DNA of 64,000 nucleotides from Sphagnum compactum (taxonomy: Eukaryota). Made by a program: the position numbers and the translations under genes. Under the pieces are notes generated by a model. That model was not told the origin of the DNA and made no database searches. It saw only the letters and a program-made list of their open reading frames with translations. Shown one piece after another: positions 15,783-45,600 of this stretch (the stretch's first letter is position 1; each line of letters opens with the position of its first letter). The stretch covers positions 5,270,001 to 5,334,000 of the forward strand of contig OZ234494.1 in NCBI GenBank assembly GCA_965153455.1, in the 5' to 3' direction.

Positions 15783-16438
15783 ATGCTTTTTTAATTAGCA
15801 AAATTTTGCCAAAACATGATATTAAAATTTAAAAAAAAAAAGATTATGAAGGTTTTGAGTTACTAGATTCCATTCAAAAAGAAAAAATCATTAGATTTGT
15901 ACATTTGGTTTTCATTGTGTAGCAAAAACTAAAAAAAAATGATTAAAAATTCAAACATTAAGTTTTGGTTGATAGCCAAATTTGGCCAAATCTTCTCAGG
16001 GATGATTGTAACTTTTGCCACTTTGGCTATAGACAAAAATTCCTAAAAAAACACTGGTTCAGTTTAGTGATTTTTTTTGTGGCGAAAACTTGCCATTTTG
16101 CTAAAAAAACAAAAGTCATTAGTGACATGCTTCAAGGGATTTTTTAGCGACATGGTGAAGGGAACTTTTTGGAAAATATCCAAAAAAAAATCACCACATT
16201 TTGAGGAAAAAAAGGTTATGAAATGGCCCAGATTTTTAGAAAATTTGGGCAAATTTCTAGCTTTCTTCTTTTGAAATCAGATATTTAGCTAATAGGATGT
16301 AGTTGGTTGGCCAAAGTGTAATAGGATTCCTAGATTTTCCACTTCTTTATTTGTCTTGTAGCCAGATTTGGCTAAACCCTGTTGTAGCTGATCACCACTT
16401 TTGGAGCAACATGAACAAAATTTGAAAAGAAAACACCG
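15783..16438. mobile_element. Two abutting MITE-like elements of the CAGTG...CACTG family (about 15783-16057 and 16065-16438)
   Basis: Shared core (T/G)TAGCCAAATTTGGC(T/C)AAA.C...GATGAT.G..AC and AAAACACTGG-type ends. The second copy aligns over about 350 bp with 30067-30414. Confidence 0.65.
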
Positions 16439-16805
16439 CTGATGAGGAGGTACCTACTGTACTTTGGTAGGTAGGTACCAGTCTGTGCTACACATGCTGC
16501 AGTTCCCCCTTGCAGGCTTTCTCTCATCAAGCACCGGTTCTCTCTCTTCCTGGCTCTCACTCATAGACACACACACGCACACTGTCTCTCTCGTGGCTGC
16601 GGATATGGCTCCAGCATCGCAATGCAGGAAGGTCAAGCTCACAAACCATTTTGGTTTGGGTTGAGTTGGACGCGTTGGGTCGTTGGAAACTTTTTCTTTT
16701 CTCGGGAGGTGGTATCGGGAAGAAGAAGGGTGTGTGAGTGTTGGACTGAGACGAGACCGTAAGACAGAAATAGTGAAGGAGTTAAAAGGAAGAAGAGGGG
16801 AAGGA

Positions 16806-18840
16806 ATGGATGTGTCCGGGAATTATGAGCGTTTTACAGAAGAGCAGATGGAAGCGCTGGAGCGGTTATATCACGAGTGTCCCAAGCCCAGCTCCATCCG
16901 CCTACAGCAGCTCATCTGGGAGGCACCTGTGCTAGCCAGCATTGAGCCGAAGCAGATAAAAGTCTGGTTCCAAAACCGGAGGAGGTATTTGTTCATTTTG
17001 CAATCACCCAATTCCTGGACTTGTCGCCACCGGCTACATCTGATTCAAAACATTCCTACTCATTCAAAACTTTGGGTGTGATCTGCTTTGTGCAGGTGTC
17101 GGGAGAAGCAGCAGAAGAAGAAGGAACCCACCAGGAGCCTTGTGAGTATGAATGCAAAACTGACAGCCTTGAATAAGCTTCTGGTCGAGGAGAATGAGCG
17201 TCTTGCTCGACATACTTCCCAGCTCACCCTGGACAACCGTATGCTACGACAACAACTCCATGACCTGCCGCCTGCTGCTCCTGGTCCTGATACCCAACAT
17301 TCCCTGCTTCTGAACCAGGTAACCCTAATGTGCTCTTGACTCCCTTGATGTGTTCAACTTTCCTTGCATCCTGCTTTCATGTGGCTCTTCTCTAAGGCCC
17401 CAGATATCCATGCATGTCTACATTCACAGCCCAAGTACTGTATGATTTCCTGTCTATATTGGGGAGATATAAATAAGCTTGTTTCAAAACCTGTTGATGT
17501 CAGAAATGCAGAATCTAATCGAACCCTAAACTACTTCCATGACCATGACAGCAGGAGATCCGACATCAAATGAAAGAAGAAAGGGTGAATGACGAAGACA
17601 GTCTGTTGAATGCATTGAAGGATGGTGGCGGTGATGAGAAGAATACTCCACGAGATCATCTGAGTTTGCAGCCCATACCTGGACAGAATTATTATGGTGT
17701 TGCTGCTGCCTCTACAGACGATGGCAACTCTGATTCTGTAATCACTGTTGTTGGTCTGCCTCAGAATTCAACTCTTCAGCATTATTCTCCTCAGGATGTT
17801 CATTCAGCAGGGTCAGTGCCAATCTACTCCTAAATCTTGATAGATTGTTCATTTTTCATGCTGATATAATTGACTCAAACCATTGTTAACATGTTCTGTT
17901 TTGTGAAGGTAAACTCTCTCTGCTTGTTACATTCCAGTCTGTACTCAATTGATTGTTGATGAACATGCCTTGTTTCGTGAGCCATGTGTTCAGGAGATTG
18001 TTGGCTGTAACAGACGAAATGACATTGACAGAATTTCTGGCAAAAGCCACCAGAATTGTGGTAGACTGGATTCAGCTGCCCAGTATGAAGGTACATGAAT
18101 TCTCTATCGATGATGGCTTTGCAAGTTTCTGATTTCGAAACTGACAGTTTAAATGGGAGCACAGGTTGTCTATGCTGCAGTGTCATTGTCAGACCTAAGT
18201 TCTGCAGCTGTTCTCATAGCCATGGCAGAATGCTTTGGTGTTGAAAGTGTGAAATCGCTTGTGAAGACTAATGGAGGTTAGCAGATTTGGAGGTCAGCCC
18301 CATTGTTCCTTCCTGTTTGTGTTTTATCTACCTTCGCAACTTGTGCAGGAAATTGGTGGCAATGGTGTGGCGTGGGAACTTTGTAGTGGAGATCAATATG
18401 CAGATGACCAGGAGTCACAATCATAGTACTGGTGTTGGTTGGTGATTGGCAGAGAGAAGTGGTAATAGGGTGGGGTTTGTGGCCTGGTCCGGATGCCATT
18501 GGCATCATTTTTGCAGTTTCACATGGTTGTGCCGGTGTTGTGGTGCGAGCATGTGGATTCATGTATCTTGAACCCACCAAAGGTAGTGACCCTCATCTGT
18601 GGTTCAGCTCACTCTTCCCCAAGAATTCACAATATTTTACATAGACCATATCCTTGTATAAAGCTGTTGTTGAAATTTTGTGTCTCAGAGCTTTGTTGCA
18701 CATGTTGACAATCTTACTGGATATCAGGTTGTGGAGGTTCTGAAAGACTGATCATCATGGCTCTGGGATTGCCGGCACATTCAAATGCTGCTGGGTGCAG
18801 TCTCAACAGGAAAAATGGGGAACAATTGAGCATTTACATC
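16806..18840 (+). pseudogene. Class III HD-ZIP (PHB/REV/C3HDZ-like), truncated or decayed in the START domain
   Basis: Open GT-AG exons 16806-16984 (homeodomain ..EQMEALERLYHECPKPS..IEPKQIKVWFQNRR), 17096-17318 (CREKQ..NAKLTALNKLLVEENERL zipper), 17555-17811 and 17994-18090 (LTEFLAKATRIVVDWIQLPSMK) total 252 codons. Exon 5 (PGPDAIG..SHGCAGVVVRACG..EPTK, from 18483) has GG for the AG acceptor and one extra A before its donor. Exon 6 (from 18728, VVEVLKD*) has TGA at 18749-18751 plus a frameshift. No clear later START/MEKHLA exons. Confidence 0.9.
18080..18492 (+). promoter_or_regulatory. miR165/166 target site split by intron 4 (halves 18080-18090 and 18483-18492)
   Basis: The canonical junction would read CCAGTATGAAG|CCTGGTCCGG, pairing perfectly with miR166 positions 2-16. 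The junction falls between positions 10 and 11. Confidence 0.8.
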
Positions 18841-21800
18841 TGTGAGCTCCTACACCCTTTTGCTCAAGGGTTCCCTCTTCATTATCCAATTGAGAATCTC
18901 TTCTTGGTCTAGTGATCCTTGGAAGTGCTGTGTCGATATTTTTCCATTCTGAAGTGCTTTGCTCCAATGATTAATGATGTTGGCTGTGCTTTTTGGATGG
19001 GTCAAGGAATGTAGCCAGAGTATTCCAGAAGTTCTGTGGTGCCCCTAAATGAATCTGCAGCAGCTCTAGCACAGAAGACAACCATCAGGTTGAGTTTGTT
19101 TCAGGAGGTTCTTTATTCTGATTTCACCTCTCTCAAAGAAACATCAGGTGTCAAAAGTTGCTTTGTGTATTTTAAGGGTTATTTGGATTTTTGGATTCTC
19201 ATTCAAACAGGTTTAAGGGTTACTATTTCATTTATTTAGGGTGATTCATATTTTGAAGATTACATTTTCTATCAACTTAATGAAGAGAGCATATTATCAC
19301 AGTTCTTCCAGTTTTGCATGATTGATTTACATAGTTGCCCTCATAATAGTTTGGTTGGCTATTGGTATACTATACTAATATGACCAAGTGTAAAATAAAA
19401 AAATAATAAATAAGAAATAACATTCTTCACATTCTATTAATTTAGTCTTGTCCCATATGCAGCAAGCCTACTCATTGTTTTGTAATGTAGTGGAGAGGGC
19501 TTTTCACACAAAAAGGTACTTTTGCATAGCCTTTAATTCACATAAATCACTGCACTAGGGGCTTTCAGCTGTAAGATTTATTCCCTTCAAGGCTTTTTGG
19601 TGTAAGGTCTATTGCTATAAGGCTCTTTGATGTGAGGCCTTGTCATTGTGATTGAGTTTTGAACATTTGGTAGTTTTATGCTAATGATGATGCTGCGATT
19701 AGTTGCTAATGATGATGATGATGCTGCGAATAGTTGTTACACCAGGTGAAGCACTATCGTAAGGGTATTTCACCTTGGACCAAGGCACCGAGGACATCCT
19801 TCTTAGAAAAGAGTAGGGACCTTACCCCATCTCCTTAAGGAGTAAACATAAGAACCTTCACCTCTTTTATCTTGTGCTTTATAATGAGTGAAGTCCATGG
19901 GTGAGGGACGTTCCTGAAAAGGGGCTGATCTTGGCTACTGCCTGTCCTGGGCACACTAATTTGGAAATGCCCTCACTCACCCTGGGGCTTAACCCTGCAC
20001 AGATTGTTTGGTGAGGGGCAAAAAAAGAGTCGCCAGGGAACAAGAGAGATGAAGAGGAGAGAGGAGAAATCCAGACTTGTGAATTAGTTTTCACCTTGAT
20101 AATTGATGCATGTATGTTTGGATGATGGATTTGTGTCCGCTGTTGTGATGTAGAGTGTTTTGAAGATCAAGCTTTCAGGGTGAAGAAAGTTTGATCAATC
20201 ACTCTGCAAATGGCCTTGTGCTGAAAAATTGGAAATATTCCTCTGTCTGTGATCTCTGTTTCAAATTCTATAAAATTGGATTAGGTCATGCATTTGGCAA
20301 CCTAATCATCTTAATCGAGTAATTTAATGTGGTCTCCAGCAGGATCCAGGAGTTTCACTTTGAAGATGTGCAAGAAACCTGTAGTACTAGCATATGACAA
20401 GAAGCATGAAATTCACTAAATGCAGAGTAGATACCTACATGTGTGTTTGTTCCATATTAGTATTTTGGAGTTGGGATCTCTTCTAAATGACAAGAAAGCA
20501 AGAAGTGGAGGAAGAGATTAATAACAACTGGGTGGTTTGTCTATGCAATGGAATTGCCCATGTCTTGGAGATGAGCCTTGTGGTTTGAGCTCTTTTGGTC
20601 TGGCATGATGTACAGTAGCCAGATTTCCAGGTTCTTCTTCTCTATATGGTGAAGATAAAATTTACCAAAATCTTGTTGCAATTCCTCTTGTGATTAGTTG
20701 AATTCTTTTAAATGTTTTGAGACTGAAGACAATCAATTGTGCACAATCTTAGTTTGTGTTAAGAAAACTTGAATCTACGGCAAAGGAATATCTGTGCAAT
20801 CTTGAAAAGCTTTTGTTCAAAATTCAAAGAGTTAGAAGAAGAAAAGGACAGTTCCCACAATTGTTCAGTTTTATCTCCATTACGTAGTACCCATTCTTCA
20901 TCACAGAATTTTGTAGGTGTATTTGGAGGGCACCTTGTATCCATGAATACACCCCCCCCCAACCTCCACCTACTCCTTAAGTATGGAAGGGAAATAATGC
21001 TTGTAAGATCGGTCCCACTCTTAAAGCAAAGTAGGCCTAAGAATCTTTCCCCTCCTATGTATCTGAGAAGGGCTGGTCTTCATGCCATTCCACATTTTAA
21101 GATGATGGGAATGAGGGTGGAGTTCCTCCGCACCGAGAAACATGGAATGGCTGAAAGACAGGCTCATTATTTTGCGAATGCCCTGGCCTTAGGCTTCCCA
21201 TATCACATATGGGAAAAAGAGTGCAAAACAATGCAGGGCATTTCAAAAAATGAAATGCACACAAGAGTGGGTGTTCTGTTTTCCAAATGTCTTGTGGGAT
21301 CTTACATGTTGTGAGTGCTCCTCCAACTAAACTAAGAATATCTTTGGAGGTTTTTTTTAATGTTTTAATGAAATGTGTAAGAATCACCACCATATGTTAA
21401 TTGTGGCGTCAATACATATAATACATGAATTGATCATCACAATGTGGATTAGTTTGGGAAACCAACTATTTCAAGATTTGAAGTGAGAAAATAACTTCAA
21501 TTAGTTGTTTGATTTTGAATTGTAAATAGGTTTCTAGTTTGAATATATGTGCATTTTGTCATGATAATGAGATTATTGAAGAGATTATAGTTCTTAATCA
21601 TAAGAGTTTGATATAGATTTTAATCAATTCAATGAATCTTACTATTTTAGTTACGATATTGATTTAAGGTTTTAGATATTTTTGTTAGATTTATGTGGAT
21701 TGTAAATCTAGGGTCTAGATGTTTGAATTGCAAATTGTTTTGTGTGTTTGGTTTCTGTAATGAATATTTGTGTTTGAATTGTAATTTGGGTTCAATGTTT

Positions 21801-30414: not shown

Positions 30415-31808
30415 TAAAATTTGTAGTGGGTCTCAGTAGTGGCGATACAAGGTAGGTAGCACAGGGGCAGGCTTATTTGTATGATTCTTTTGCTTTGTGC
30501 CGCTTGTTGCAAGAGGAGAGGAGGATTATTGTACGAAATTGTCAGTGCGGGAAAGTGAGTGCTCAATCAGATCATCACTGGATCTTTGTTGTTGGTTGCG
30601 CATCGAACCAATTCTTGCAAAAGCAGCAAGAATCGTCAATACTCAGAACACCCCATTTCTATTCTTTTGAATTTTTTTTCCCATTTCTATCGTTCCTGTT
30701 TCTTCACACCACAATAACAACAACCACCACTCCCAAAGAATATTGTAGTTGCTAAATTTGAGATCCGTCAGTTTGAGATTGACGGAGGTGGGTGCGTGGG
30801 AGGGGGGAAGTCGCGGGAGAGAGATGGAAGATCAACTTCAGTTGTGGAGATGGAAATTCTCGACTGCACCTGAAATTCTAGACTGGGGTGGTCGTCTTTT
30901 TGGTGAGGTGTGACTTTAGGGTTTCAATCGAGGGAAGAAGAACAAGAAGAACAAGAAGAGAAAAGTGCCGGACGTAGGTGTTATTAGGTGGGGAATAAAT
31001 AAATGGGTTTCACTGCAGGGCTTGGGAAGTGGTTGGAGATGGAGATGAATTGCACAGAAAAACCCAGTCTCGGCTTTTTGTGAATTTCCAACTCTGAAGG
31101 AGCTCAGAACTGCGGTGTGGGTCTACAGGTCTCACTGCTTCTGTGAAATACGGTGAGTGGGTGTCATTTCACGTCTGAATCTTGATTTTGCAGATGTTTC
31201 TTGCATCCACGGGGACATTTTTTATCTTCTACAAGTTCGTGTCTGCCTGAGGAAACAGAATCGTGCATGCAAGTAGGAGAAGATCCTTGTTGAGGATGTA
31301 GTTTCCTCTGACGTTTATATATTTGTTCTGCCTTAATCTAAATACGACTTTTGGGCTCCACTTTGTACTCACATTATTCTGTGCTCTAACATACATACAT
31401 TAGTTTACGTCCGTGTCCTCAGATCTGTGTGCATCATGGAGAGAGATCTGGTATTTTTTGTTAAAGATGGTTGTGGATATGGCTGCAGGAGTGGCAAAGA
31501 ATCTGGAACTTATTCAAGTTTCTCCATTTGTCAACAGTAGGAAAAATCCAAGTGGAAGCAATACATCTGTAGGAGCAAGATTTCAATATTGCCTGTGAAG
31601 CTTGTTGGGTTCTGGGTATTGAAATTGAGGAGCTAGGGTTTGTCTGTAATTACATGATACGACTGATATTTTGCAAGTGTTCAACCCAGAAGAGTCACAT
31701 GAAGACGGATGTGTAGCTCTAGAGAGGTTTAAGCAAGGGCTGATGTGATAGCCCTCGGAGTTTGGGAATTCAAAGGGGAGTTGCTACGGATTAAATCCTA
31801 TAGAAAGC

Positions 31809-34426
31809 ATGGTGAAAGGGATGGCAAAGGGGAGCAGGAAGCCCGTGATCTGGGTGATTTTAGGCCTTTGTGTTGCAGTTTTCCTCATGCTTCCGGCTGT
31901 TTATCCTGAAGCCAGATCCCTATCATATTATTTCAATAGAATCCACAGCAGCATTAGTTCTGAGGGCAGAGCTATGAACTGGTTACCATGGTCAACATCT
32001 GCTTTGAGAGTTAATATCTCTGATGAAGCTGTGGATCATGCCCCTGCTTCTGGAATTGGGGAAGCAAACACAAGCACTCAGTGTTCATTGCCCCTGCTAA
32101 AGGTATATATGTATGACTTGCCTCGGAAATACAACTTGGGAATGATTAAGAAGGATGAGAAGAATCAGGAGATTCCATGGACAAATAAGGTTGCACCAGC
32201 TTTTAAAACCAGATGGCAAGTCAACAAGCAACATAGTGTAGAATACTGGATGATGGTGTACATGTTGGATGCCTTGGATAGTGAAAATGGAGAGAGGGTA
32301 GCTGTGAGGGTGAAGGATCCAGAGCAAGCTGATGTCTTCTTTGTGCCTTTCTTTTCATCACTTGCCTTCAACACATATGGCCATGGTATGACAGGACCAG
32401 GGGCAGAGTATGACAAGCGTATCCAAGTGAGTTTTACCTCTATGTTTCTATCTCTGTTTTGCGGGGTGGATGCTCTCAAAGTGTTTCTTTTGCCAGAACT
32501 TATCTTTTTTGTTTTGGATCCACTGTATCAAACCTTGATTGGTGAATGTTCAGTGTTGTTCCTCATCCATAGATCAAAACTCTAGCATCAGGATGCTTCA
32601 TCCTCATTTTCAGTCATGAAGTTTGAAGCTGGATATAAATATGTTCACCAAAGTTTCCAAATCATGTGTAATGAATGGGGATTGGTAACAACGCAGGCAG
32701 GTGTGGTGGACATTCTGAAGGCATCGAAGTGGTGGCAAGCTTCTCAAGGGCGTGATCATGTCATCGTCATGCATCATCCTAATGCATTTAGGTTCTATTC
32801 AAAGACACTTTCTTACCCTGAACCCAATTCAGGATCCAGCAACTAGCAGCTTTTAATTTTGAACTGGAGGGGTAAGAAAGGTGACATGTTTGCCAGTCAG
32901 GTTAGGAACTGAAATCACCAAGGCTTTGTAGAGAAACTTAGCAATGCTTTGCAAGCTTTGACATTTTGGGTCAGAACAAGGTGACTTGCCTCTTTCTTAT
33001 TTCCACAGTAGCCATCTGTTAAACTAAGAACTGCAACTAAATCATTTCATAGAGTTTTTTCTGTTCTGAGATTTTTGGGGTTGGGTTGTTTGGACAGGCA
33101 TTTCAGACAAATGTTTAAAGAGTCAATCCTGATAGTTGCGGACTTTGGGAGGTATCCAAAAGAAATTGCACGGCTTCGCAAGGATGTTGTGGCTCCATAT
33201 GAGCATGTTGTGCCCACATTTGAAGAGGACAATGGAAAAGATCCATATATGTCAAGGAAAATTCTTTTATTCTTCCAAGGACGAATTCAACGCAAGGATG
33301 TGTGTACTCATTTCCTTTGTGCCTATGTCCACAGAAATAACACTTGCCAAGAAGTCTGAGAACATCCCTGTCATTTGGTGCAATTTTGATCCGCTGTGAT
33401 CTAGAACGACCCAAAACATAAGAATTTTACATGATGGTAGATTTAAGTGACAGAATGGACGTTGGGAGCAGTTGAATAAGAAAAGAGATGATTACATGTG
33501 TCCAGACTTGTGTTTAGGTTTATTTCAAGTCTGTGAGATCATGTTGGTGCTTGCAAAGATCTATGTCTAAGATGCCATTTGTTCCTCTTTTTTGTTTATC
33601 CATGAAGCACTGTTGGATGGTCTGCATGCATCAGGATGGGGTTGTGAGGAGCAAATTGGCGCATGTGCTAGCAAACAAAACAGATGTGCGCTATGTGAAC
33701 AGCCTTGCCTCATCGGAAGGACTGGAGCAGGTAGAGACTTGTAGTTCTTGCAGTTCTGATGCCTGACCTTGGCCCTGATCTCCACGGCTGAACTTTCACC
33801 ACATTTGGAGTTTTTCTTATCAAGCAGTTGAGATGATGTCCACATCCTACTGGCAGATTGTAGAGGAGTCTGCACCCTGAATCCATCTTAACACTATAAG
33901 TGCTCTTTGGTAGAGCATTTATGATGTAGGATTCCTTGCTGACAGAAGTATTCTTGTGATATCAGCAATTGGGTTGGGCTGACTGACTGTTGTATGACTG
34001 CCTTTGCAGGCAACCAGGGGAATGCGTTCATCACGCTTTTGCTTGCATCCAGCAGGGGATACACCATCCTCTTGTCGCCTTTTTGATGCGATTGCAAGCC
34101 ATTGTGTCCCTGTCATTGTTAGTGACAGATTAGAACTGCCATTTGAGGATGAAATTGACTACAGAGAGTTCTCATTGTTTTTCTCAATCCAAGAAGCCAT
34201 CAGGCCAGATTATCTTGTAAACTATTTGAGGAACATTGAGGAAGGCCATTGGCTTCGAATGTGGAATCGGCTCAAGGAAGTGTCTCATCATTTTCAATAC
34301 CAACATCCACCAAAGAGAGATGATGCTGTGAACATGATTTGGAAGCAGGTTCAGCATAAAGTACCAGCTGTGAAGCTGGCAATGCACAGAAATCAAAGGC
34401 TCAAGATTGCAGACTGGTGGCAATGA
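31809..34426 (+). CDS. Exostosin-family glycosyltransferase (GT47), ARAD1-like probable arabinosyltransferase, type II membrane protein, 475 aa
   Basis: Exons 31809-32426, 32697-32791, 33098-33299, 33635-33730, 34010-34426 (all GT-AG, 1428 nt, open). N-terminal TM segment [17 protein letters not shown]. Motifs [99 protein letters not shown]. Confidence 0.95.
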
Positions 34427-42675: not shown

Positions 42676-45600
42676 CTACTCCCCTGTTGGATCTCCTTGT
42701 CTGGGTTGTGGGGGATGTTGTAAAGGCTGAAAATTCAAACAAAAAGCAAAAGAAAAAGCAAAAGGGGTGATATTCTAACATGATTGAGGGGGTTCAAGTT
42801 TCTACACTTCTACAGAAACAAATCCTACTGTATTTATGCTGAATATATGCAGCAGCTATCCTAAACAAACAAGGCTTCATCTGTGATTTTACCACATGAT
42901 TTGATACGTCTATCACTCTTGTACGACCCAGGAGCCTAATGAATCTATTGGTACCACTCCTTTGATATGGGAAATTGGACACATGGGATTGTGGTAGGCA
43001 AACACTTAGTCACAATTCAGAGTTACAAATAATACCAAGAACATTTGGAGTCCAAGTTTCTGTGGACGTGCTGCAACTGAAGCTGTGGAAAGCCTCAGTC
43101 TAAGATTTCTGCAATCCAAACATGAACACAATGATCAGAATGTTAGTTGTGCATTGTCAGAATTCAACTGTCCTCATGAACTTGGTACTTTGCAAGTGAT
43201 TCCTGTCATTATTTTGGCTTTACTCTGAGCTTGACAGGACATAAGCTTACAGAATCCAACTATTATCCCAGCATGTCACGAACCAAAATTTCCTGGGGAT
43301 CTGAAAAATCTTAATCGCATTCAATGCCCTATGAGGATTCTGTCCCCTTGAAAATAGCAATTACTTGAAGATGTGAAAGCTTTTCCTTGGGTAGTACCTG
43401 AATGTTTCCACACACATCCAAAACTTCCTCCAAAGGTGCCCAATCACCAAAATTCCTCTCCACAAACTGGTAAGCAACCCCACCATTTCCTGCTCTGAGG
43501 ATGTAAAGACCTCCCTTGATTGTACCCTCCCCTGTCAAATTGTATTCAATTCCAGTGTCTGTGGCACGTTTCCAGTTTGCTTTAGCAGCTGGATTGAGCA
43601 AAAATCCAGTTATAAAGCCTTCTCTGGGAATTGTTCCACCTCCAAGTGCCTTGAAAAAATCTCTATTTTCATCAACCACCACCATACCTCCCCAATACCG
43701 TGGCCAAAATGCCCTCACCTGCACTTGGAGAAAAATGAACTAGGCTTAGAAAGAGAGAAATCCGATAAGCACTGGCATTTGGTCACAGCAAGAATTCTGC
43801 CAGTACAGAAACACAGGCCTCTAGCATGGTGATTGAGACTTAGAGATGACTTGGTTTAAAGCAAAACTCTTTCAAGAGAAAAATTCCAGAACAGGGGGCA
43901 TACCTCAGCATCAATATGCTCATTGAGACACACAACCAACTGAATACCCATGGCATCGAAAATAGGTTTCCTCGCATACAACTGATGTGCTTCTGCTCGG
44001 CACATAACACACCTGTATAACCCTCACCCCAAATCAATGCCTGTCATCACCAATTCACCTAGTATTTGGCCCCACCAGAGTTACAATCCTTGAAAACAGG
44101 AGATTATAGAATCTATTCTTCAGTGCACATTGCCTGCCGGTCTGATGCATGCCCTTTTAACAGAGATTGAGCTGGACACATCTTCAACAGCCCTGTGACT
44201 TGCTTGCTCAGAGCTATCACCATCACAAATTGGGTGCTCCAATAGTTTCATCCCCAGCACTTACTCCCGTCCCACTTTGCTCAGGAAAGAATTTGAACAC
44301 AATGCAAGACCATATCAAGTAATTGGTGCTACAGACTATAAAACCCATCAACCCTTCTCCTCAATCTCATTGAGTTGATTAGCAAATTATGGATTGCAAA
44401 AAAATCCACAATCGGTTGTAATTAAGCTGGTGATTATCAAATTCTGGACTTCAGAAAATCCACAATCAGTTGCAAAGCTGGTGGGTGATGAACCCTAGCA
44501 GCATGGGTTTGGTATATACTGTTCAGAACAAATGAGAACAAGGGAGGAAGAAGAACAGGCACTTTGGATGACTTGATGACACACTTCACTGGCTTGGGGA
44601 CAACTCCTAAAAGCACTCATGGGAAAGAACTTGAGCCATCTGGGAATTACAAACATGAGACTTGAGCACTGAGGTACTAGAGCTTCTTCCAATACACATC
44701 AGAATGTGTTGTTGGAGACATTGAGCTATGGCTTGTTGATGTAGAAGGAAATGAAGAAAAGAAAAGTGAGTGGGGAGAAAGAAGACTTCACTGGCTTGGG
44801 GACAAACTCTTAAGAGCATTTATGGGAAAGAAGTTGAGCCATCTGGTGGGAATTACATACATGAGACTCAAGCACTGAGGTTCTAGAACTTCTTGCAATA
44901 AATACATCAGAATGTGTTGTTGGAGATGAGCTATGGCTTTTTGATGTAGAAGAAGATGAAGAAAAGTAAAGTGGGTGGTGAGAAAGAAGTCACACCCAGG
45001 GCGGCGTAGGCACAAAATCAAAGTGGGTTGATCAGCCCAAAGCTCAGAAGCTCTGGTAGGAGGAGGCAATGCGATGGGGGCAGACGACTTCTTGAAAGGA
45101 TTGTTGCCCTTGACATAGGCGGGTGTGAGTTTCCTGATCATGACCTTCTCCAGAACGGACAGCTGAGTGACCTCCTCGCTGATAGAGCCGGGTATCACCA
45201 AGCCACAGAAACGAGGAGTGACAGGTGCCGCTGAGAAAATCCCCTTGCTAACAGTGGTAGGACCACCCACAGGTCGGAGCACAACTGGGGACTTGAAGCC
45301 AGAGATGTCTGTGGTGGACTTGCCGTCGGCGCCGGAGATGAGCTTGACGCCCGGATATATCATTTCGACATCATTACGGGGGGACTCTTCAGCAGGCACA
45401 GGCGTTGAGGAGGGTTTCGTCTCTTCCAGCTTCGGCAGCTTGGTACTTTTGGGTTCCTTGATCTTCTTCACCTTTTCTTCCACCTCTGCCGGAGCTGCTG
45501 GCTCTGGCTCCGCCACACCGTGGTGCACTTTGGTGGTTACCCTGGCAGGAAGGTTGAGATTTCTGGGCAATTGGATGCTGCAAGCGCTGGCCCTGTCGAT

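Follow-up and report, generated by a model that had tools for sequence, protein, structure and literature searches.

Class III HD-Zip (C3HDZ) transcription factors govern the patterning of shoots, leaves and conducting tissue throughout the land plants, and a copy that has kept its homeodomain (HD) and leucine zipper, and lost most of what followed them, raises the question of whether such a locus is a decaying relic or a gene that still acts through the part that is left. One such copy lies in the stretch of Sphagnum compactum DNA analyzed here, which is 64,000 nucleotides long and is referred to as the window (Table 1). Direct reading of its exons 1-4, checked by script, gave 756 nt, i.e., 252 open codons ending in ...QLPSMK; the preliminary description of this DNA had reported the same 252 codons and placed all lesions from intron 4 onwards, and it was borne out in every detail. 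The GT/AG sites of introns 1-3 and the donor of intron 4 are intact in the window as well as in three other genomic copies. The spliced translation is identical, letter for letter, to a public protein of 277 amino acids (P0002), and a 277-aa homeobox protein is indeed the existing public annotation of the locus in six Sphagnum species, the 277/278-aa orthologue models being those of S. compactum, balticum, troendelagicum, jensenii (two copies), magellanicum and fallax. An alternative NAGNAG acceptor of exon 3 at 17552 adds one Gln, and the 277-aa and 278-aa isoforms both exist. The 5'UTR carries an upstream ORF of 19 codons in the same frame as the main ORF (ATG at 16605, TGA at 16662-64), the stop of which is read through in P0170. 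The points that go beyond the preliminary description are the acceptor at 18347-48, the splicing of the decayed exons as 3'UTR, and the existing public gene model.

Table 1. Features of the truncated C3HDZ copy, in window positions
Feature	Positions	Strand	Evidence or remark
5'UTR of exon 1	16558..16805	+	Spliced mRNA contig L001 aligns from 16558
Exon 1, coding part, homeodomain	16806..16984	+	Pfam PF00046; junction 16984/17096 in 3 X24 reads and L001
Exon 2: last part of HD helix 3, spacer longer by 4 residues, six-heptad leucine zipper	17096..17318	+	
Exon 3, disordered linker	17555..17811	+	15/257 changes; pLDDT 33-46
Exon 4, first helix of former START domain	17994..18090	+	tblastn against P0013 residues 213-242
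Start of intron 4, retained: 13 codons and TGA, giving 265 aa	18091..18132	+	ORFs P0123, P0131, P0140
New terminal coding segment, 25 codons and TAG	18349..18426	+	New acceptor AG 18347-48 inside old intron 4
Degenerate miR166-like site in 3'UTR, spanning dead acceptor GG 18481-82	18472..18492	+	Pattern match, 3 mismatches
Old exon 5 (start of START), now 3'UTR in mRNA exon 18349-18582	18483..18582	+	tblastn
Old exon 6, now 3'UTR exon	18728..18841	+	TGA 18749-51; +1 frameshift near 18810-16; junction 18841/19007
Last mRNA exon (3'UTR)	19007..19396	+	L001 alignment

The extent of the loss was determined by comparison with the intact 882-aa Sphagnum paralogue (P0013). By tblastn, only residues 1-304 and 397-412 of this paralogue have remnants in the copy; the match of exons 1-2 is far beyond chance (E=2e-46), old exon 5 is 72% identical to residues 240-274, and the stretch matching residues 397-412 is a START scrap in the last mRNA exon (19042-19089, PLNESAAALAQKTTIR). 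Nothing credible past residue 412 was found by tblastn anywhere in the 64-kb window, i.e., the SAD and MEKHLA regions are gone, and P0002 likewise gave no Pfam match to SAD/MEKHLA or to START, the latter scoring 170 bits in P0013. Residues 213-242 are all that is still coded of the START region, the later exons being broken or deleted, and what remains is less than one third of the ancestral protein. The lesions themselves are readily located. Old exon 5 has GG where its acceptor AG should be, and its 100 nt are made up of 33 codons and one extra base before the donor (ACCAAAG/GT), which is probably the inserted A (+1 A) of the preliminary description. In old exon 6, the TGA stands in place of the Arg of KDRPSW, and the +1 frameshift follows it. 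The GG acceptor, the extra base, the TGA and the frameshift are common to the window and to the genomic copies L002, L003 and L004, the four together representing three genomic lineages. It is to be noted that the disabling lesions are confined to old exon 5 and what follows it, whereas a non-functional pseudogene would carry them throughout and evolve neutrally. An Rfam scan of the window returned 0 families.

RNA data showed that the copy is transcribed from the + strand and spliced, in polyA reads as well as in transcript contigs, which speaks to the check on splicing that had been proposed earlier. The contig L001 is a spliced mRNA of 1894 nt with seven exons. Among the stranded polyA raw reads of X24, 38 of the 77 aligned reads were at least 99% identical to the locus, and almost all had one direction; they covered the new, intron-derived part of the exon at a depth of 6.1, and the introns at a depth close to 0. 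Junctions were recovered in X24 at 16984/17096, 18090/18349, 18582/18728 and 18841/19007, of which the second was seen in L001, one X24 read and contigs of X1 and X4, the third in two X24 reads and an X1 contig, and the fourth in X24, X1 and X4. In the main mRNA, therefore, position 18090 is joined to the new acceptor (18348/18349), which adds 25 codons and a stop and yields the 277-aa product. The product of about 265 aa predicted earlier from retention of intron 4 does exist, with exactly the 13 codons expected (VHEFSIDDGFASF) and a TGA at 18130-32, but it is a minor form and not the main one, the depth of intron 4 in X24 being 0 to 0.3 vs 6 to 10 for the exons on either side. The claim that the exon 4/exon 5 junction was lost also held, as no read or contig of the copy's own joins 18090 to 18483. 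Fifteen X24 reads do carry an exon 4/exon 5 junction, and they were assigned to the intact paralogue because each shows at least 8 further differences and the translation of their loose ends is that of P0013.

Expression of the copy is low, with about 38 own reads in 11.9 million (X24). Two spliced junctions follow the main stop, starting 156 nt downstream of it, in a 3'UTR of about 0.8 kb. A stop well ahead of exon junctions and a long 3'UTR are both marks for nonsense-mediated decay (NMD), and the main mRNA is expected to be NMD-prone through its spliced 3'UTR. Both the low expression and this architecture favor the reading that the locus is a transcribed, slowly decaying pseudogene with a promoter and first four splice sites that are still in working order, the mRNA of which is a decay-prone by-product that yields no relevant protein, and the frame of which stays open by chance, for want of time, or through constraint on the RNA or DNA; on all the evidence given below, we consider this rather unlikely.

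The ancestry of the copy was clear from a maximum-likelihood tree of 19 N-terminal regions, from which ZPR (LITTLE ZIPPER) sequences were left out. The truncated clade was nested among the moss C3HDZ sequences, as sister to the clade of the 882-aa Sphagnum paralogue, with support of 99/98. In its homeodomain, its adjoining zipper and its place in the tree the copy agrees with the C3HDZ family, and it lacks the START, the SAD/MEKHLA and the junction-spanning miR165/166 site of the family. It belongs to the same lineage as the full-length moss C3HDZ genes (P0013 and the Physcomitrium C3HDZ/HB genes) and agrees with them in the homeodomain, the six-heptad zipper and the places at which introns separate exons 1-6; unlike them, it has one START helix, no SAD/MEKHLA and a new C-terminal tail. 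Partial or intron-retention C3HDZ ORFs of other plants, such as P0223 and P0020, likewise end soon past the zipper or past ...GMK, where they read into an intron, but they derive from intact genes, as isoforms or fragments, with 37-48% identity, whereas the Sphagnum copy is a dedicated, separate locus. When proteins of the same length were searched, identity of at least 97% over most of the protein was seen only in Sphagnum-type clusters; the other same-length matches reached at most 48%, and the six that were inspected were fragments of normal genes or intron read-throughs. Floyd et al. in 2014 reportedly sampled many transcriptomes, among which such a sequence might be mentioned. In our literature search, the accessible portions of the papers, including PMC13415961 and PMC13464504, held no description of a truncated C3HDZ in Sphagnum. 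The branch lengths also bear on the possibility of slow decay: the stem of the truncated clade measured 0.41 vs 0.061 for the intact sister, and its tips 0.005-0.022 vs 0-0.005. Amino-acid change was thus roughly 7 times faster than in the sister, which, together with the loss of over two thirds of the protein, is in keeping with a pseudogene.

The nucleotide changes within the genus speak against it. Changes were counted on a three-lineage tree. L004 was left out because it is almost identical to L003, and so was the genomic contig X18, which comes from another Sphagnum and departs from the locus by 70 differences and 17 gaps in 2.8 kb, because its differences are known only in part. The HD-Zip exons had 5 changes in 402 nt (1.24%) vs 56 in 1089 nt (5.14%) for the introns, i.e., they evolved four times slower (Fisher p=0.0003), whereas the dead exons that are now 3'UTR (5, 6 and last) had 27 in 650 (4.15%), near the intron rate. 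Exons 1-2 are thus under purifying selection relative to the introns, which supports the earlier interpretation of the copy as more than a dead pseudogene. Exon 2 in particular differed by 0-2 positions in 223 nt between lineages, and no stretch of the locus without a substitution is longer than 17089-17243. The linker exon 3 changed at the same rate as the introns, which is neutral drift and agrees with the pseudogene reading. Seven indel events were counted in the introns; from the introns, 5.3 indels and 1.7 new stops were predicted for the CDS, but 0 of either were found (P=0.005 for the indels; P of none = 0.15 for the stops). Lesions in the HD-Zip exons of orthologues were also looked for, and 12 of 12 distinct full-length ORFs were open across the genus, the sole indel inside the ORF being in frame (loss of one Ala, in P0122 and P0131). 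A contig ORF that breaks off early within exon 3 (P0143), as judged by eye, may reflect a frameshift. The dN/dS check was run pairwise and gave values below 1, from 0.25 to 0.71 for the whole CDS and from 0.14 to 0.88 for the HD-Zip part, yet the latter range rests on only 1-3 changes of each kind, and its upper end is what a pseudogene could also give. Since these counts are small, the signal of selection rests on the comparison with the introns.

We then considered what the maintained parts could do as a protein. In P0002, the homeodomain (residues 8-59) scored 44.7 bits against PF00046, above the cut-off of 22.9, and that of the intact sister P0013 scored 55.4 bits. In alignment A1, the WFQNRR of helix 3 is invariant, and so are the zipper leucines 75, 82, 89, 96, 103 and 110; such complete retention of the heptad leucines is a further point against a pseudogene. 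The homeodomain changes faster than the zipper in the truncated copy: identity to P0013 is 49/59 in the former and 35/39 in the latter, and in columns invariant in the outgroups, the homeodomain had 7 changes in the truncated copy vs 0 in the full copy, and the zipper 2 vs 1. The replaced homeodomain residues include V8E, Y10F, R33L and others that are invariant from liverworts to mosses, which again fits decay; two basic residues are lost in this region, and helix 3 itself is altered in some lineages (K49N, K52S). The variable sites amount to 12% in the homeodomain, about 30% in the linker and 3/25 in the new tail, which is acidic, 25 residues long and found in 12 distinct ORFs. Near the end of exon 4, G250S is fixed in the truncated clade.

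A homeodomain that is still recognized, with its invariant WFQNRR and fewer variable sites than the linker, and an acidic tail that varies little, would also suit an autonomous small HD-Zip factor, homodimers of which bind DNA at targets of their own or at C3HDZ sites and need no full-length partner. The AF2 monomer can be read in the same sense, as it has three HD helices and a single helix spanning residues 48-115 (pLDDT 70-88; mean of the model 57), in which helix 3, the inserted spacer with its proline, and the zipper are drawn as one, the spacer having a pLDDT of 70-72; on a break in the geometry between homeodomain and zipper, the model speaks neither for nor against. However, the spacer from helix 3 to the first zipper Leu is 4 residues longer than in P0013, one of them the proline, and Sessa et al. 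in 1993 are said to have found that exact spacing of homeodomain and zipper is needed for DNA binding by HD-Zip proteins. The loss of basic residues and the greater divergence of the homeodomain than of the zipper also argue against an autonomous factor, as does the transcriptional weakness reported for START-less PHABULOSA (PHB; PMC10226595), and we deem such a factor improbable.

The transcript itself had to be considered too. In C3HDZ genes, the miR165/166 site spans the exon 4/exon 5 junction of the mRNA. In the copy, the end of exon 4 is the 5' half of the former site, where AGT now replaces the Gly codon, and the main mRNA retains the seed half of the site together with an upstream stretch that is predicted to pair still in part. 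The preliminary description had called the transcript miR166-immune; the canonical, junction-spanning site is indeed lost, but immunity does not follow, since the degenerate site in the 3'UTR survives with 3 mismatches. This site was found with a wobble-tolerant miR166-target pattern built from an assumed miRNA sequence; the window had 3 matches to the pattern, a number reached in 0 of 100 shuffles, and the other two were scattered on the minus strand. The site is identical in 4 genomic copies and falls within the second-longest substitution-free run (143 nt, 18386-18528). As a candidate conserved 3'UTR element, this run was not significant after multiple testing, and in permutations a run of at least 94 nt occurred in 46% for the stretch 18427-19396. 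The pattern match and its shuffles, the identity of the copies and the place of the site in the run may suggest an RNA-level role, in which the transcript is a weak miR166 target or decoy and the ORF is secondary. The length of the run, the minus-strand scatter of the other matches and the origin of the pattern weaken this proposal, which would also leave the open ORF and the conservation of the zipper exon without explanation; we regard it as very unlikely indeed.

Two known systems help to place a truncated HD-Zip III protein. The ZPRs are microProteins that restrain C3HDZ proteins in euphyllophytes, which they bind through the zipper and keep from binding DNA, and their presumed origin is a C3HDZ duplicate that degenerated. 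They are zipper-only proteins of 67-105 aa (bioRxiv 10.1101/2021.11.24.469949) and are reported to be conserved across euphyllophytes (PMC5381583); the likeness drawn here also relies on the 2014 work as cited in PMC12329180 and PMC5381583. The zipper is the best-kept part in both the ZPRs and the Sphagnum copy, and the action expected of both is the same, namely zipper pairing with C3HDZ, which in Sphagnum would be by analogy. Unlike a ZPR, the copy is 277 aa long and has a recognizable homeodomain. It arose separately within the Sphagnum lineage and is not a ZPR orthologue; as the tree places it beside a Sphagnum C3HDZ paralogue, its origin is independent of the ZPR clade. The other system is the START-deleted PHB of Arabidopsis (PHB-Delta), which dimerized at 15% vs 80% and gave no phenotype even if miR166-resistant, although its target sites were still occupied (PMC10226595). 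Both are HD-Zip III proteins without START, but PHB-Delta is artificial and keeps SAD and MEKHLA, whereas the Sphagnum copy is natural, lacks MEKHLA as well, and is open across the genus. The PHB-Delta result would count against the dominant-negative role that had been proposed for the Sphagnum copy.

Overall, we favor, at a probability of roughly 55%, the reading that the locus is a genus-wide, expressed, truncated C3HDZ paralogue and a putative zipper-based modulator of C3HDZ output. Its history would begin with a duplication of the 882-aa C3HDZ gene, after which the acceptor of exon 5 and the greater part of the 3' half disappeared from one copy and another acceptor arose within old intron 4; the decayed START exons now serve as a spliced 3'UTR. 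The putative product of 277 aa would consist of the homeodomain, a longer spacer, a near-unchanged zipper, a disordered linker, one START helix and an acidic tail, and would act through the zipper, by binding full-length C3HDZ proteins or by pairing with itself on the same DNA sites. Having neither START-dependent activation nor MEKHLA control, such dimers may damp or modulate C3HDZ output, and NMD set off by the introns of the 3'UTR, perhaps along with what is left of the pairing to miR166, may keep the level of the protein low. A more specific version is offered only tentatively, namely that the copy is an independent, ZPR-like brake on C3HDZ in peat mosses, caught at the intermediate stage expected from the duplication-degeneration model, without START, MEKHLA and the cleavable miR166 site but with the homeodomain still attached, in which the altered spacing makes the heterodimers poor at DNA binding, and NMD and the residual miR166 site tune the dose.

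If the ORF is untranslated, the locus would be merely a well-preserved transcribed pseudogene. A bryophyte truncation kept open through the history of living Sphagnum, on the other hand, would be a natural replicate of the ZPR path at an earlier stage. It would make testable whether the loss of START and MEKHLA alone turns a duplicate into a modulator, and how miRNA control is lost or rewired on the way. The copy is a candidate regulator of leaf and branch development in Sphagnum, and may show how small regulators of such transcription factors first arise.

An ATG at 16806 on the forward strand opens four exons, with GT..AG borders throughout, which together make 252 codons and encode a class III HD-Zip (C3HDZ) homeodomain, a six-heptad leucine zipper, the linker and the first START helix. 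Old exon 5 (PGPDAIG...EPTK) follows a GG (18481-82) and is one base too long, old exon 6 contains a TGA (18749-51) and, near 18810, a +1 shift, and of a later START exon a single scrap is left downstream; with the intact 882-aa Sphagnum paralogue (P0013) as tblastn query, no match beyond its residue 412 was found in the 64-kb window. All sequence observations of the preliminary description (252 codons, GG acceptor, extra base, TGA, frameshift) were thereby borne out, and its estimate for intron-4 retention (13 codons and a stop, about 265 aa) was reproduced, as read-through gave 13 more codons, a TGA and a computed product of 265 aa. Within the 5'UTR lies an upstream ORF of 19 codons, in the frame of the main ORF, and its stop is read through in one contig ORF (P0170), extending the N-terminus by ~66 aa. 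Intron 1 contains a TGA in the window, and in several other lineages it has no in-frame stop; the resulting read-through ORFs of 177-180 aa (P0004, P0171, P0173-P0175) were probably predicted by prokaryotic gene finders run on genomic contigs. Exon 3 begins at a tandem NAGNAG acceptor (CAGCAG), which accounts for the 277-aa/278-aa isoform pairs in the S. fallax and S. magellanicum annotations. The neighbouring genes are a glycosyltransferase of the GT47 exostosin family, present as exon-like ORFs, and a protein of the AhpC/TSA_2 antioxidant family.

Features of the truncated C3HDZ locus and its surroundings (window positions), with the seven exons of the spliced mRNA contig L001
Feature	Position	Strand	L001 exon
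Exon 1, coding	16806-16984	+	16558 or earlier-16984
Exon 2	17096-17318	+	17096-17318
Exon 3	17555-17811	+	17555-17811
Exon 4	17994-18090	+	17994-18090
Old exon 5	18483-18582		18349-18582
Old exon 6	18728-18841		18728-18841
START exon scrap	19042-19089		19007-19396 and beyond
Upstream ORF	16605-16664		
Intron 1	16985-17095		
Tandem acceptor	17550-17556		
Substitution-free stretch	18386-18528		
miR166-like site	18472-18492		
GT47 neighbour	31752-34426	+	
AhpC/TSA_2 neighbour	43329-43739	-	

A scan of metagenome contigs yielded four loci, namely the spliced mRNA contig L001 (1894 nt) and three genomic copies (L002, L003 and L004). The exon layout of L001 places the acceptor used by exon 4 at a new AG (18347-48) within old intron 4, past which 25 new codons (EIGGNG...QESQS) end in TAG at 18424-26, while the broken START exons remain spliced into the mRNA as 3'UTR. 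Spliced and translated in full, the window sequence gives exactly P0002, a public 277-aa S. compactum 'unnamed protein product', to which exon 1 is 100% identical.

Reads of four sequencing runs were aligned to 16300-19700. Run X24, consisting of stranded polyA raw reads that carry the species label of the best-matching data sets, was read to ~12% and gave 77 reads, of which 38 were at least 99% identical, nearly all in one direction, consistent with forward-strand RNA. Depth was 2-10 over exons, ~0 in introns 2 and 4, and 6.1 across 18352-18465, a stretch absent from every paralogue mRNA; spliced reads covered the junctions 16984|17096 (3 reads), 18090|18349 (1 read, plus contigs of runs X1 and X4), 18582|18728 (2) and 18841|19007 (2). 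The remaining 39 reads were 90-95% alike, and 15 of them joined 18089 to 18482, the canonical junction between exons 4 and 5. Assignment of these to the locus itself was rejected, since each showed 8 or more further differences and the loose ends of these reads translated to P0013 peptide; it is the mRNA of the intact paralogue that forms this junction. The RNA check proposed earlier is therefore answered by L001 and the stranded X24 junction reads: the locus is transcribed and spliced. The postulated intron-4 retention product does exist, as the intron-4 tail terminates three ORFs on transcript-sized contigs (P0123, P0131, P0140), but L001 uses the 18349 acceptor and X24 depth in intron 4 is ~0. 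In two S. magellanicum isoforms (P0124 and P0125) the acceptor lies within old exon 5, and every 3' form stops shortly past exon 4. The stop codon lies 156 nt upstream of two spliced junctions, and a stop well before spliced junctions is a feature of nonsense-mediated decay.

At the gene ends, depth in genomic run X18 drops from ~11,500 at 16300-16413 to ~117 across the gene, indicating that a high-copy repeat ends ~150 nt short of the first base with transcript evidence. Some 277 nt after 19396 are missing from the window and present in L002 (19396-19424; L002 6597-6874), and L001 and the X1 and X4 contigs continue into them, so species differ in where the last exon ends.

The transcript had also been predicted to be miR166-immune. 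The canonical site is indeed lost: in its exon-4 half AGT replaces the Gly codon of intact genes (G250S), and the seed half (18483-92) follows intron sequence in the main mRNA. However, a degenerate site remains, which fits a wobble-tolerant miR166-target pattern, derived from the miRNA sequence, with three mismatches (by hand, opposite miRNA positions 13, 16 and 17) and is identical in 4/4 genomic copies.

The GG acceptor, extra base, TGA and frameshift are identical in the window, L002, L003 and L004, and the translations of the latter three equal S. magellanicum and S. fallax models; the truncation is therefore older than the split of these lineages. In a maximum-likelihood tree of 19 N-terminal regions, the truncated clade (100/100) fell within moss C3HDZ, where it grouped with the 882-aa Sphagnum paralogue as its sister (99/98), and had a stem of 0.41 changes per site versus 0.061 in the sister and tips of 0.005-0.022 versus 0-0.005. 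Cluster look-ups placed the 277/278-aa model also in S. balticum, S. troendelagicum and S. jensenii (two copies), with orthologues in S. magellanicum (CY35_02G035900, isoforms of 262-278 aa) and S. fallax (BDL97_02G035000). A same-length protein search gave matches of at least 97% over most of the length in Sphagnum-type clusters only. Public models of the locus bear only 'hypothetical' or 'homeobox domain-containing' names, and our literature searches found no description of the truncated Sphagnum C3HDZ.

Changes were counted in an alignment of three lineages (window, L002 and L003), excluding L004, which is nearly identical to L003.

Substitutions and indels by region in the three-lineage alignment
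Region	Changes/sites	Percent	Indel events	p vs introns
Introns (reference)	56/1089	5.14%	7	
Old exons, now 3'UTR	27/650	4.15%	3	
Linker exon 3	15/257	5.8%	0	0.64
Exon 4 + new segment	5/172	2.9%	0	
HD-Zip exons 1-2	5/402	1.24%	0	0.0003 (Fisher)

Measured against the introns, the HD-Zip exons are constrained, a question for which the preliminary description had proposed dN/dS of exons 1-4 versus 5-6. The 831-nt CDS had no indel events against 5.3 predicted by the intron rate (P=0.005), and no new stops against 1.7 predicted by simulation (P of none = 0.15). The frame was open in 12/12 distinct full-length ORFs among the fetched proteins, and the single indel observed was in frame. Nei-Gojobori ratios were 0.14-0.88 for the HD-Zip part and 0.25-0.71 overall, each from 1-3 changes per class, so that it is the intron comparison and the open frame, rather than dN/dS by itself, that make the case for constraint. 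In the full set of fetched orthologue pieces, variable sites made up 8% of the zipper, 12% each of the homeodomain, exon 4 and new tail, and ~30% of the linker, where three were read-through artefacts. One contig ORF, P0143, read by eye, ends early in the exon 3 region (…QQYSTPKS), which may be due to a sequencing error or to a frameshift that one lineage carries near the linker-exon end. The four genomic copies share a 143-nt stretch without substitutions, which among such runs of the locus is exceeded in length only by that of the zipper exon and is on its own not significant; within it lie the last part of the new coding segment with its TAG, the dead acceptor, the degenerate miR166-like site and the acceptor that the 262/263-aa isoforms use instead.

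Identity to P0013 was 49/59 in the homeodomain and 35/39 in the zipper. At columns invariant in five outgroups, the truncated copy had 7 homeodomain changes versus 0 in the 882-aa sister (p=0.016), and 2 zipper changes versus 1. Between helix 3 and the first Leu of the zipper, the truncated protein has a four-residue insertion that contains one proline. Pfam recognized only the homeodomain (44.7 bits) in the truncated protein, and the homeodomain (55.4 bits), START and MEKHLA in P0013. AF2 (mean pLDDT 57) predicted one continuous helix at 48-115 and disorder at 155-228 and 244-277.

The locus is a conserved, expressed HD-Zip-only paralogue with the zipper as its best-kept part. Its protein would pair via the zipper with full-length C3HDZ or with itself and, START-dependent potentiation and MEKHLA control being absent, would modulate C3HDZ output, a putative function that is plausible. 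As a caution, START-deleted Arabidopsis PHABULOSA is reported to dimerize at 15% versus 80% and to give no phenotype even if miR166-resistant (PMC10226595). C3HDZ ORFs that, by intron read-through, end just past ...GMK or past the linker were seen in other plants or mosses (P0223, P0020), and HD-Zip-only isoforms made by intron-4 or intron-3 retention may be widespread among C3HDZ genes. The LITTLE ZIPPER (ZPR) microProteins are said in PMC12329180 and PMC5381583 (citing Floyd et al. 2014) to stem from a C3HDZ duplicate that degenerated and was truncated, and to show conservation throughout the euphyllophytes. The Sphagnum gene is no ZPR: its 277-aa protein, unlike these, retains the homeodomain and originated within Sphagnum. 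It is a real gene-like locus with a new architecture within the known C3HDZ family, and, by analogy, looks like an independent run of the ZPR path at an earlier stage.
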